A stretch of 64,000 nucleotides of DNA, from the NCBI RefSeq assembly GCF_044647545.1, contig NZ_CP172818.1; one strand, 5' to 3'. The position numbers and the translations under genes were made by a program. The DNA is from Escherichia coli (GTDB taxonomy: Bacteria; Pseudomonadota; Gammaproteobacteria; Enterobacterales; Enterobacteriaceae). A model generated the notes under the pieces. That model did not search any database, was not told the origin of the DNA, and saw only the letters and a program-made list of their open reading frames with translations. The first letter of the stretch is position 1. The number at the start of each line of letters is the position of its first letter. Of this stretch, positions 16,142 to 64,000 are shown piece by piece.

Positions 16142-16530
16142 TTCAATGATAATCCTGATTTAAACGCCTATACGGTACGATCATCCCCTCGCCCCTTCGT
16201 GGAGAGGATTAGTGATACAAGCCAGCCAGAGACCAGGCAACGACATGCACATAACCACCTGAAACTACATCTCTTCAGGAGCAAACAATTTCATACCAAC
16301 TCATAACCCCAGCATATAAATCCAGTTGGTAACTTTTATTTAACCTGAAACCAGTTTTATCCACTATTTATAAAATTATGTGAAGCATTTCATAGAAGAA
16401 AAATCACTGGCCTAAACATTATCCCCTTTTTGCCTGGTTTTTGACCATTTCCGCGATTTGTTACACATTGAAATATCACTTTTGCTGTGCGTAATATGGC
16501 TATTCGTTAGCCAAAAAATAAGAAAAGATT

Positions 16531-41669: not shown

Positions 41670-41718
41670 GATCCGGGCGCAAATTGCCATTACGGCAGCC
41701 TGACGCCCACATGACACG

Positions 41719-41826
41719 TTACTTCCGCTTATTCAGCCAGTTCACGATCAGACTGGCAAGAATGCCAGCAATGACCGGAGCCGCTAAATCATGCCAGAAG
41801 GCCATGCCCAGCTCTGCGAGCGTCAT
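41719..41826 (-). CDS. ldrD: LdrD, type I toxin peptide (35 aa)
   Basis: C-terminal 35 codons of ORF 41719..41994 read MTLAELGMAFWHDLAAPVIAGILASLIVNWLNKRK, the Ldr peptide family; ATG at 41824-41826. Confidence 0.85.
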   Translation of the reverse strand: MTLAELGMAFWHDLAAPVIAGILASLIVNWLNKRK

Positions 41827-41875
41827 ATAGCCGCCTGAGTTGTAATGACAACGTTTCGCGGCTATTCTTGAGTGG

Positions 41876-41941
41876 TCTAGAGTCAAGATTAGCCCCCGTG
41901 ATGTTGTCAGGTGCATACCTGCAACGTGCGGGGGTTTTCTC
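41876..41941 (+). ncRNA. rdlD: RdlD antisense RNA (type I antitoxin of ldrD); approximate coordinates
   Basis: Plus-strand segment opposite the ldrD leader ending in hairpin cccccg...cgggggttttct; position inferred from the known ldr/rdl arrangement, ends not verified. Confidence 0.5.
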
Positions 41942-42301
41942 TCTCCAGCAACCAATGCCACCAGGGATAAAGCCCCCGCAACATTGCGCCTCACCGGAAC
42001 CTTTCCGGCTTGCCACTGATTCTACGATTGCTTTTTACCGTCAGCACCCGGCAATCTTCCTCATTGCGTGATGCATTCCAGCTTAATTTCTTTATTTGCA
42101 ATAGTTGCAGTTCATATCCGGGCTGACTCCAGACTGGTAGTGAAATGCGCATTTTTGTAGAATTGCGCCTCCTCGCGACCTCCCCAGTGAATCTGTTGCC
42201 TCATTTTTTACATACTGCGTATTCGACTTCTCCACCTGTTGCGCAAGAGAAACTGGGTTTATTCATTTTTGCGAGGCCGACTTCTTTCTGGACAGGACTT
42301 T

Positions 42302-49287: not shown

Positions 49288-49860
49288 TATTCTGCTCCAA
49301 TTGTGATGTTTGTTGTTTTAACCCTTTGCAGTGGGTTGTCGCCGCCTGACCTTTTTTGTTTTTTGCCCGGTCGGGTCAACGTTATGAGGTGGGGATGCCG
49401 TACTAATTAACATCAGTGTAACAGTGCGGATCCTCCAGAAAATGCCCCTCGTGACCTACAATCTGTCAACAGAATGTGAAAACGTCAATACAGCCAACCG
49501 GGATTTACACCAACGGTGAGAATCAACAAACAAAGATTAAAAAAACTTCAAACAGCTATTTGCAGCAGAGAAATTTGTGCTACGCCAACACAACCAGAAC
49601 AATCAGCTTAATATTTAGCAACATTTGGTGATTAAGTTTTATGCATTTAATGAAAAAAATCTGAGGTAAAGGTGGATATCTGAGCGATTAATACCATGAA
49701 CGCTAAAACGCACAGGGGAAAATGCCAGCGCCAGCCATAAGTAACGCAAAAAAAGATTTAAGCAAATATAAAAAAAGACAATGGTTTCTGTCACAAATCC
49801 GTTAATGGATAGTGAGATATGGGGCGCAAATTTGGCAGGGAAATGTGTGGTGTGTAGATC

Positions 49861-49937
49861 GGATAAGGCGGTCGCGCCGCATCCGACAATGGGCCGGTAC
49901 ATTTGCCTGATGCGACGCTGACGCGCCTTATCAGGCC
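49861..49937. repeat. REP/BIME cluster upstream of dppA
   Basis: ggataaggcggtcgcgccgcatccgac and gcctgatgcgacgctgacgcgccttatcaggcc are REP-type palindromic units. Confidence 0.7.
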
Positions 49938-50149
49938 TGCATCGAGTCGAACCTCCTTGTCCCCCGATAAGACCGGTATTTCAATCACCACATGAGACTT
50001 CAGACGCATACAAGCTCTGCATCAATTAGCATGCTAATTTCGCCTTTGCAGTGACAGCTGATATACACGTGCTTCTGGCCAGCCCTGCGGCCTTTAACAG
50101 GTCAGACTGGCAGTGTCCGCACCTCAGGTTCTGGATGACTTTCGCTTTT

Positions 50150-50690
50150 TCTCCAGCTCCAGGCCCTTTTTTTCCAGGAGATGCTCCTGCATGGCTTTCA
50201 GATATTCATTTTTGGGCGGAAAATACGCGGGTCTTTTTTTCTCTCTTTCCGGGTTCTGTTTTCCTCGTTTTTATGGGTGTCATCAAAAAGGGGTTTGCTT
50301 TTCTCCTTCCTGCGCCTTAAAAAGGCCTCATCACCAGATTTTTTGGTTCCTTTTTTCCCATTTTTTAACCGGTTTTGGGTGGGGAAGTTTAAACCGGGGG
50401 GCGCCCGGGGGAGAGACACAATAACCGAGAGGATAAAAAAACACGCAAAGTTTTTTTTTTGGAGAAAAGAGCGCTGGTGTGTGTGTACAATGGTGTGAGA
50501 GGGGGGAGGAGAAAAAAAAAAAATATAGTGTGGGAGGGGGGGGTGTGAAAGAGGTAATATTGTTGTGGTAGAGAAGATATGACGACATGAGGGGAGGTGA
50601 TGTTTTATGGGGGGGTGTTTTTTTTAATATATGTGTGTTATATACTGTGCTTTTAGATGTGAGATAATGTTTGATATATGGGCAGTTCAT
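50150..50690. other. Anomalous low-complexity block (homopolymers T9-T10, A12-13, G8; (TG)n; near C-free stretch) between dppA and proK
   Basis: Directly visible composition anomaly: tttttttttt, aaaaaaaaaaaaa, gggggggg and gtgtgtgtgt runs, open in nearly all six frames with no protein-like ORF. Nature unknown; artefact suspected. Confidence 0.6.
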
Positions 50691-50697
50691 GGCGCGT

Positions 50698-50727
50698 CTT
50701 ATCAGGCCTACGTCGAATCGAACCTCC
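50698..50727. repeat. 30-bp REP-like direct repeat, 27/30 identical to 49927-49956, bracketing the anomalous block
   Basis: cttatcaggcctacgtcgaatcgaacctcc versus cttatcaggcctgcatcgagtcgaacctcc at 49927-49956. Confidence 0.6.
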
Positions 50728-50765
50728 CCGCCCCCGGGGGTTCTCTTCCTCATGAGCTACAGATG

Positions 50766-50797
50766 CAAAAAAGCCTGCTCGTTGAGCAGGCTTTTCG
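50766..50797 (-). terminator. proK rho-independent terminator
   Basis: Hairpin gcctgctc-gttg-agcaggc immediately 3' of the tRNA on the minus strand, followed by a short T-run on that strand. Confidence 0.65.
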
Positions 50798-50801
50798 AAT
50801 T

Positions 50802-50878
<77 letters not shown>

Positions 50879-50969
50879 AATGCGGGGCGCATCTTACTGC
50901 GCAGATACGCCCTCGTCAATCCCTTAATAGCAAAATGCCTTTTGATCGGCGAGAAAGTCAGCAGGCTTC

Positions 50970-52661
50970 TTAGTTAGCCGCTGCCTCTTTTGCCTGCGGG
51001 ATGTGGCACCAGTTGTTGTTTTCGTTAATTCCACCATCCGGTGAAGTATAGCCAAGACACCCCATGATGGTGTCGTACAGCTCTACATGACGGCGTGGCA
51101 CTTTCATGTCGGCTTCTTTTTTCAGCTGCGCAAATGCCTGCGCATTGACCGGATTTTCCAGATATTTATCCGACATCCAGACCATCATCGGCACACGGAA
51201 CTGTTCCGGCGGTGCCAGTTCACGCGGCGTGCCGTGCAGGTGCTCGCGTTCATTAATTGACTCACCGTGGTCAGCTGCATAGAACACAATCGCTTTCTTA
51301 TCGCGAACCTGATCAATCACGCTGGAAATAAAGTGATCCACATAGGTCACCGAGTTGTCGTATGAGTTGATCATCTGCGCTTTGGTACAGCCGCTATCAA
51401 CACCAATACATTCCGGCTTCCACTGCGCAAAGCTGCGCGGGTAACGCTGGGTGTAGTTAAAGTGTGAGCCTTTGGTATGCAGAATGATCAGATGCTTACC
51501 ATCCGGGTTGCGCCCCAGCGACTGCTGCATTTCGTCTACCAGCAACATATCATCTACCGGTTTGCCACGGTTACGTGGCTCCGCACCAATCTGCTCACGA
51601 TAAGCAATGTTGTCCGCCATCGTATTGCTGTAGAACCACATTTCGCTTTGCATAGCGTAGAGATCAGAAGTGAATCCTAACTGCTTCAGCACCGCGAAAA
51701 TATTCTGTTCTTTTAATGTGCGCTGCGGATTATCTTCTGCTCCACCCTGACGTACAAACATGCAACGCAGTGAGAGTTTGGTTGCAGTATCACAGGAGTA
51801 ACCACGGAACGCCGCCAGATTTTTCTCCTGAGCCAGTTTCGGTGTGGTATTGCGTTCATAGCCGAAAATGCCCATATGATCCCAGCGCGTGGTTTCACCA
51901 ATAATGAAAACGACATATGTATCATCAACGTTTTGTGGAGCCTGGTACGTAAACTTCTTCGCAGGGTTAAGGAGAGAATTGTTATCGGAAGATTCATCGA
52001 CCCGCGCCCAGGCATAAAGACCTAATGCCGAAAGCCAGTTTGATGGCAGATAAGAGTTCGCGACGACGCCGCCATAACTCGGCAAATCAACACCTGTCGC
52101 CCTCTCCACTTTCTTCTGCTGGATATCCAGCAAACGAATCGGTGCCCAAACCATAATACCTGCCAGTACGACGACCGCCAGGCTGCGAATACGCTGCCCT
52201 GGGGTTCGCAGTTGTCGGAGCAAGGTGTAACGACAGCGGTTATTCCAGATAAGGATAAGAGGCAACGCGCTTACGGCGATTAACCAGAGAATAAAGTTCA
52301 GACCAACAACTTCTTTTGACAGGTCGATATCGGTGGTCATGACGGATGCGATGATGCCATAACCAATGACTACATTAAGGAAGGTCATGTAATAGCTGGC
52401 ACCTGCGGAAAAGAGCACCACCAGCGATGCCAGAATACGCCAGCTGCGGCGGCCAAACAGCGAAAGAAGACGTAGTAAAAAGAAGGTCACCAGTACGGTG
52501 GCAGCCAGTTCAACAACAGCAGAAATGCCTTTCCAGACGGTAAAATCGTGCGCATAGCTGCCGAAACGGCGGTAAAAAACCGCGCCATTCATAAAAAGGC
52601 CAATATAGATTGCAAGCAAAAAGCTCAGCTTCTGCTGTGTAATCGATTTGATGTATCTCAT
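50970..52661 (-). CDS. eptB: Kdo2-lipid A phosphoethanolamine transferase EptB (563 aa)
   Basis: ORF 50970..52694 trimmed to [23 protein letters not shown] at 52659-52661; N-terminal TM segments plus sulfatase-like domain. Confidence 0.92.
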
Positions 52662-62788: not shown

Positions 62789-62867
62789 TCCCAGCCTCCT
62801 GTGTTGATTTCCACCGAGTATGTACTGCACCCATTTTGTTGGACGATGAAATGGAATAGCCCCTGAT

Positions 62868-63389
62868 ATGTCAAAGCCAAAATACCCTTTTGAAAAGCGC
62901 CTTGAAGTCGTGAATCACTACTTCACTACTGATGATGGTTACAGGATCATCTCGGCACGTTTTGGTGTCCCCCGAACCCAGGTCAGGACATGGGTTGCCC
63001 TCTATGAAAAACATGGAGAAAAAGGTTTAATTCCCAAACCTAAAGGTGTTAGTGCTGATCCAGAGTTGCGTATTAAGGTCGTGAAAGCTGTGATCGAGCA
63101 GCACATGTCCCTTAATCAGGCTGCTGCTCACTTTATGCTTGCTGGTAGTGGTTCTGTAGCCAGGTGGCTGAAGGTTTATGAAGAGCGCGGAGAAGCTGGT
63201 TTACGCGCGCTCAAGATTGGCACCAAAAGAAACATTGCAATATCAGTTGATCCAGAAAAAGCGGCATCAGCATTGGAGCTGTCAAAAGACCGACGTATTG
63301 AGGATCTTGAAAGGCAAGTTCGATTTCTTGAAACGCGGCTTATGTATCTAAAAAAGCTGAAAGCCTTAGCTCATCCCACGAAAAAGTGA
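62868..63389 (+). CDS. insJ: IS150 OrfA / InsJ, HTH DNA-binding transposase subunit (173 aa)
   Basis: 173-aa ORF MSKPKYPFEKRLEVVNHYF... with IS3-family OrfA HTH and leucine-zipper region. Confidence 0.92.
   Translation: MSKPKYPFEKRLEVVNHYFTTDDGYRIISARFGVPRTQVRTWVALYEKHGEKGLIPKPKGVSADPELRIKVVKAVIEQHMSLNQAAAHFMLAGSGSVARWLKVYEERGEAGLRALKIGTKRNIAISVDPEKAASALELSKDRRIEDLERQVRFLETRLMYLKKLKALAHPTKK
63350..63356 (+). other. Programmed -1 ribosomal frameshift slippery heptamer A_AAA_AAG of IS150
   Basis: ctaAAAAAAGctg near the end of orfA; the -1 frame is open from upstream of this site and continues into the DDE transposase. Confidence 0.75.
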
Positions 63390-64000
63390 AAGTACTCAAC
63401 GAGCTAAGGCAGTTTTATCCTCTTGATGAGCTTCTCAGGGCTGCGGAGATACCGCGCAGTACGTTTTATTACCATCTAAAGGCTCTCAGCAAGCCTGACA
63501 AGTATGCGGACGTTAAAAAGCGTATTGGTGAGATTTATCACGAGAATAGAGGCCGATACGGATACCGTAGGGTAACGCTGTCTCTTCATCGAGAAGGGAA
63601 ACAGATTAACCATAAAGCTGTTCAGCGCCTGATGGGAACCCTCTCACTTAAAGCAGCGATTAAGGTCAAGCGATACCGCTCTTACAGAGGAGAGGTAGGG
63701 CAAACCGCCCCTAATGTTCTCCAAAGAGATTTCAAGGCTACGCGGCCAAACGAGAAGTGGGTTACCGATGTTACTGAATTTGCAGTCAATGGGCGCAAGC
63801 TGTATTTGTCTCCAGTAATAGATCTCTTCAACAACGAAGTTATTTCTTACAGCCTTTCGGAAAGACCAGTGATGAACATGGTTGAGAATATGCTCGATCA
63901 GGCATTCAAAAAGCTTAATCCTCACGAGCATCCTGTTCTGCACTCTGACCAGGGATGGCAGTATCGTATGAGAAAATATCAAAATATTCTTAAAGAACAT
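63386..64000 (+). CDS. insK: IS150 OrfB / InsK, DDE transposase catalytic domain (partial, continues beyond window)
   Basis: Manual translation in the -1 frame gives [33 protein letters not shown]...KWVTDVTEF...HSDQGWQY with no stop before the window end; absent from the ORF track because the stop lies outside. Confidence 0.85.

Follow-up and report, generated by a model that had tools for sequence, protein, structure and literature searches.

A garbled block between direct repeats beside proK in an Escherichia coli ST648-type chromosome is very probably an assembly artefact at an IS1397 site

What separates the two direct repeats that lie next to proK in this Escherichia coli chromosome: an integrated element, a duplication, or sequence that the organism does not have? 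The preliminary description of the 64-kb stretch of DNA analysed here (64,000 nucleotides of contig NZ_CP172818.1, hereafter the window) reported 27/30 direct repeats about 770 bp apart that enclose a low-complexity block, and both observations hold. The two 30-mers are on the + strand at positions 49927–49956 and 50698–50727, with a start-to-start spacing of 771 bp and mismatches at 3 of 30 positions; they are the only two sites in the window with three or fewer mismatches to the 30-mer, and none is present in shuffled sequences (expectation 0.00). The two copies remain similar beyond the 30-mers, over 46 nt in all at 83% identity (49919–49964 and 50690–50735), and all eight differences between the left and right copies over this length are transitions. 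The initial ~14 nt of both 30-mers correspond to the right arm of a REP palindrome, the second REP of a BIME (Table 1). The low complexity of the enclosed block is evident in a GC skew of up to +0.9 between 50450 and 50650, and in 19 homopolymer runs of 5 or more, compared with 4 in the insertion sequence (IS) that occupies this site in related genomes.

The window is from an E. coli chromosome of ST648 type, and the gene order at the locus is dppA, the intergenic region, proK and eptB. Rightward of the block, the window matches many ST648-type genomes at 100.0% identity over 9.3 kb, and leftward it matches NZ_CP008697.1 at 99.9% over 9.9 kb. When the block is set aside, only a few dozen differences separate the remaining 62.8 kb from NZ_CP008697.1. 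The intergenic region contains two REP palindromes in opposite orientation that score above the gathering threshold for a BIME (RF02564). A search with the REP consensus gave a single match, with two mismatches, to the second REP at 49905–49940, and the right arm of this REP, from about 49921, falls within the suspect block.

Searching 5426 complete E. coli genomes with positions 49300–51000 (1701 bases) identified 218 with at least 80% query coverage at one place. Among the matches listed (30 records), all 30 span 2364–2367 bp compared with the 1701 query bases, and an intact IS would give the 665 bp excess in these records. The inserted sequence is an element of 1432 bp (ST648-type genome L001, 2124–3555) annotated as an IS3-family orfAB transposase with a programmed frameshift, and its ends are TGAACTG...CAGTTCA. 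It is inserted in the REP loop with a 4-bp TGGC duplication (...gacgc TGGC, IS, TGGC gcgtcttatcagg...), and the left end of the IS follows ...gacgctggc in all close relatives. The relatives' element has high full-length identity to a named copy, with 97.0% identity over 1432 bp and no gaps to an IS1397-family copy in L005, which is likewise REP-borne and has a GTGA duplication. The name IS1397 is based on the RefSeq annotation in L005 ('IS3-like element IS1397 family transposase') and on a publication stating that insertion of IS1397 is specific to E. coli REPs (PMC1525189). The underlying biology, IS1397 targeting REP loops, in this case within the dppA–proK spacer in 218 of 5426 complete genomes, is already known. 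We note that in L005, strain WP8-S18-ESBL-07, the IS1397-family copy is in a REP directly beside rayT, a REP-associated tyrosine transposase gene (L005 967–1464, 1627–3058).

The ST648-type lineage therefore carries a 1432-bp IS1397-family element in the REP loop between dppA and proK, and the block in the window occupies exactly the interval of this element, which bears out the earlier proposal that the repeats delimit the event. The preliminary description also suggested a comparison with reference genomes, and this shows that the 30-mer is present once in K-12 (L002), which has no insert, and once each in the ST648-type genomes L001 and L004 (NZ_CP008697.1), which have the intact IS to its left.

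In the window, the interval of the relatives' IS is filled by 771 bp (49919–50689) that contain a shortened copy of the IS, in two garbled fragments, with errors growing along the + strand. There is an exact match of 23 nt to the IS at 49960–49982. The block lacks IS positions 1–574, and with them the left inverted repeat, as well as some 130 bases (~641–771) from inside the IS. Each deletion joint has a short shared string: CCCCCG where the flank meets IS position 575, and CATCA at the joint internal to the IS. The deletions may stem from a chimeric PCR template or from an IS that is truly truncated. In contrast to the relatives' element, the window copy is 78–79% identical over two fragments, has stop codons that break all three − strand frames and so has no intact orfAB, and has neither a left end nor an identical duplication, with TGAC on the left and TGGC on the right. 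The left target-duplication copy is TGGC in the ST648-type lineage. The origin of the block can nonetheless be traced with 19 informative sites at which the ST648-type IS and the 97%-identical L005 copy differ: in the block, 16 of them show the ST648-type state and none shows the L005 state, and the template was thus the lineage's own IS. A different IS1397 variant, or another IS3-family element, was considered as the source and is rejected by the same comparison.

Table 1. Features of the dppA–proK intergenic region and proK in the window
Feature	Position	Strand	Remarks
BIME, two REP palindromes in opposite orientation	49857..49937	+	Rfam naRNA4 (RF02564), 63.3 bits; gathering score 59.5
Left repeat copy, judged part of the artefact	49919..49964	+	Imitates an IS-free site: REP right arm and 30 nt of proK-side flank
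Garbled fragment, approximately IS positions 575–640	49960..50027	+	Transposase encoded on − strand; BLAST of intact IS 79% over 72 columns
Garbled fragment, approximately IS positions 772–1432, including right terminal ...GCAGTTCA	50039..50689	+	BLAST of intact IS 78% over 669 columns
Right repeat copy, genuine chromosome	50690..50735	+	TGGC target-duplication copy, right arm of the IS-split REP and start of the tRNA-like unit downstream of proK
Putative proK terminator, hairpin then T run directly downstream of proK	50767..50795	−	Read by eye: aaaaaagcctgctcgttgagcaggctttt
proK, tRNA-Pro(CGG)	50802–50878	−	ARAGORN; Rfam tRNA 60.7 bits; T-arm contains ggattcgaacctcc

The departures of the block from the IS have a distinctive profile. 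The block matches the true IS at an identity of 0.99 over 50068–50212 and then at 0.80, 0.77, 0.68 and 0.68 in successive segments of ~110–130 nt, before identity returns to 1.00 at 50682, eight bases short of the IS end. The copy stays in register, with 126 mismatches compared with 17 gap positions. Over the last 230 nt, C is kept at only 6 of 38 positions, and its replacements across the whole aligned stretch are 24 T, 17 G and 7 A. In 83 of the 126 mismatches, compared with 59.5 expected, the erroneous base is the true base of a neighbouring position, a number reached by none of 2000 shuffles. The mismatches favour no codon position of orfA (40/33/39), and the transposase frame does not survive. 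This gradient, with a copy in register, copying of neighbours and no codon bias, is an error profile of the type seen in reads. A natural divergent homologue under selection is rejected by the even codon distribution and the broken frames. The substitution matrix likewise rejects DGR-like or deaminase-like mutagenesis, the former because there is no A-specific pattern.

The block also appears to be restricted to this record. No match above 80% to positions 50200–50700 was found in complete E. coli genomes, the left junction is absent from all 5426 of them, and six ORFs of the block are all absent from a collection of 15 billion proteins. The block is thus absent from close relatives even though the flanks are essentially identical to theirs.

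The explanation that we favour, and regard as very probable, is that 49919–50689 is not the true sequence of the organism and represents low-quality filler in an assembly gap caused by a multi-copy insertion sequence. Divergence of ~30% that is confined to the IS footprint inside identical flanks, together with a one-way gradient of accuracy, is the behaviour of a bad read and not of evolution, nor of any mutagenic enzyme known to us. There are two or more copies of this IS in ST648-type genomes, and short-read contigs would therefore end at its boundaries; a multi-copy IS would break a short-read assembly in this way, leaving good contigs on either side, and the gap was then probably bridged by one or a few poor reads. 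The error pattern most resembles the tail of a dye-terminator (Sanger) read of a gap-closing PCR product, although the platform is a guess. In-register substitutions that grow over about 470 nt fit such a read tail better than they fit nanopore or PacBio reads, in which errors are mostly indels. The true locus is most likely REP left arm, TGGC, intact IS1397, TGGC, REP right arm and proK. The preliminary description had raised repeat-mediated duplication or assembly collapse as one possibility, and of these an assembly error comes near the truth; there is no sign that the 30-bp repeats caused it, and the multi-copy IS is the likelier trigger.

The error is strictly local and the rest of the window is clean. 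Two single-base indels relative to NZ_CP008697.1, at window positions 848 and 5876, affect two genes, one for a hypothetical protein and gadW, whose copies in that genome carry the RefSeq flag 'frameshifted', and because these errors probably belong to the reference, they do not detract from the quality of the window outside the block. There are several other departures from relatives. Nine substitutions relative to NZ_CP008697.1 are clustered at 41709–42015, adjoining ldrD, and most other ST648-type genomes are ~484 bp longer in the left-flank stretch (10,384 compared with 9,901 bp); this probably reflects copy-number variation of ldr toxin repeats. The yhjD–yhjE spacer (16151–16216) contains a short G-rich repeat element with a cluster of small indels, and reads ...cgtggagaggattagtgatacaagcc in the window and ...cggggagaggattagggtgagggggtacaagcc in NZ_CP008697.1. 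At the right end of the window, 62817–64000 is 98.8% identical to the IS150 between hokA and glyS of NZ_CP008697.1 (L004 23304–24487) and is in the opposite orientation, representing either an inverted IS150 or an inversion breakpoint.

The two repeat copies differ in standing. From 50682 onwards the window is 100% identical to ST648-type genomes, and this includes the right repeat, which is genuine; the filler starts with the left repeat, which makes up its first 46 nt. Whether the organism has the left copy and the block is doubtful, whereas their presence in the window sequence is not in question. The left copy differs from K-12 by five transitions, and at the three sites that distinguish K-12 from the right copy it agrees with K-12 throughout; with these three informative sites and five private transitions it is not merely a noisy copy of the right flank. 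Several sources for the left copy were considered and rejected. One is an E. coli paralogue: a search with 49934–49990 gave only the 23-nt IS stretch, and the best match to 49900–50075 in the 5426 genomes is the K-12-type allele at 91.2%. Another is the natural allele of a different species, and the exact 30-mer and a 21-mer core have no matches in 100,044 species representatives. A mixed-template Sanger trace from empty and occupied sites is also rejected, as by eye the IS base is in register at none of the eight odd positions. Decay of base calling alone leaves the two internal deletions unexplained, as well as the 46-nt left copy with its K-12 states and five private transitions, and these features point to a chimeric or foreign template, or to a second processing step. 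On the artefact explanation the repeat pair is without biological function, and represents neither a target duplication nor an att site.

The resemblance of the repeats to a tRNA T-arm, also noted in the preliminary description, is real, and the TCGAACCTCC motif of the repeats recurs in the proK T-arm at 50820–50829. Downstream of proK lies a conserved tRNA-linked unit (tcgaatcgaacctcc ... terminator hairpin) that all of the E. coli examined possess, with a single copy in the ST648-type chromosome and in the window; the hairpin is kept in K-12, where there are two copies. The genuine right copy runs into this unit at the T-arm-like TCGAATCGAACCTCC, which explains the resemblance, and the resemblance is unrelated to the block. 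In K-12, the unit is tandemly duplicated together with a 19-nt proK 3′ fragment (L002 744–1076, compared with window 50712–50878), and RefSeq annotates it as 'RtT sRNA'. The Rfam RtT covariance model has no match at E≤1 over 49300–51000.

Three other readings need to be weighed against the artefact explanation. Site-specific integration beside proK, in which a tRNA 3′ fragment would have given rise to the 30-bp repeats as attL and attR, was proposed in the preliminary description and accounts for direct repeats with a T-arm-like TCGAACCTCC near a tRNA gene and for the single copy in empty-site genomes, although the artefact explanation predicts the single copy equally. However, neither repeat overlaps proK or its 3′ end, the nearer one ending at 50727, 75 nt from the gene, and the T-arm-like motif belongs to the conserved unit that is found in all E. 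coli examined and is tandem in K-12. The interval is just 771 bp and contains neither an integrase-like ORF nor cargo; its ORFs are short and of low complexity (≤140 aa), and the DNA aligns to an IS3-family transposase gene. Moreover, the relatives have a classical IS insertion at this same point, and that element duplicates 4 bp rather than 30. We therefore reject integration, which has next to no probability of being correct. A reading with rather more in its favour, although still unlikely, is that a real structural variant underlies bad base calls, with an IS1397 truncated to ~575–1432, and perhaps with a second internal deletion, following a real duplication of the flank, such that only the base noise is artefactual. 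The joints at CCCCCG and CATCA are of the kind produced by illegitimate recombination, or by PCR template switching, and deletions of 574 and about 130 bp are beyond the reach of base-calling decay alone. But copies from a recent duplication in this genome would be identical, whereas here 8 of 46 positions distinguish left from right and the left copy is of another allele type; furthermore, the left target-duplication copy is altered (TGAC), no shorter element is present at the site among the matches listed, and the sequence around both joints is of poor quality.

The remaining reading is a natural mutated remnant, in which localised hypermutation or ancient decay of IS1397 is bounded by a duplicated flank. 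The record does state the sequence as such, and the strand asymmetry in the loss of C might in principle be reminiscent of deaminase-type damage. The lost C residues are, however, replaced by all three other bases, and the remaining bases are affected too; errors follow a positional gradient with an abrupt stop at the IS boundary, wrong bases copy their neighbours, and there are many small indels and run expansions. The divergence of about 30% also lies within flanks that are 100% identical to those of intact-IS relatives, and we consider a natural remnant very improbable. To our knowledge, no bacterial mechanism gives this error spectrum. The particular version in which an IS1397 was truncated and then hypermutated in a very recent lineage, with strand-biased loss of C and expansion of runs, and bounded by a duplicated and diverged flank, would if true be the equivalent in bacteria of repeat-targeted mutagenesis acting on mobile elements, and would imply a form of localised mutagenesis of insertion sequences that is new. 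We give it very little credence, and the evidence is strongly against such mutagenesis here.

The block is thus almost certainly not a real biological feature; integration is rejected, and the suggestion of an assembly error was essentially right. The significance is one of quality control. Annotators of this record would miss an intact copy of IS1397, spurious ORFs could be called within the block (e.g. low-complexity ORFs of 140 aa and 105 aa), and the site could be misread as an integration hotspot.

The locus can be compared with four known systems. The element in the relatives is like IS1397 in the REP loop of a BIME in its 1432-bp length, its orfAB, its position in the loop and its 4-bp duplication, and the block derives from that variant; the window copy differs in lacking the left 574 bp with the left inverted repeat and ~130 internal bp, in an overall identity of 78%, and in having no surviving frame. 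Repeats at tRNA-linked units of the RtT type are a second comparison. The right copy enters a unit that starts with the T-arm-like TCGAATCGAACCTCC and ends in the proK terminator, but the window has only one such unit, with no Rfam RtT match, and these units are conserved chromosomal features, unlike the pair spaced by 771 bp. The att repeats of tRNA-targeting integrative elements are similar in being direct repeats with tRNA-like sequence near a tRNA gene, but in the window neither copy reaches into the tRNA gene, integrase and cargo are both missing, and one of the copies is not credible as real sequence. Among gap-closure artefacts, in which a poor read tail fills a contig break induced by a repeat, the likeness is in the block edges at the IS boundaries, the error gradient, the perfect flanks and the restriction to one record, and the block differs in its 46-nt left copy with a K-12-like allele and in its two deletions, which are atypical of a read tail.
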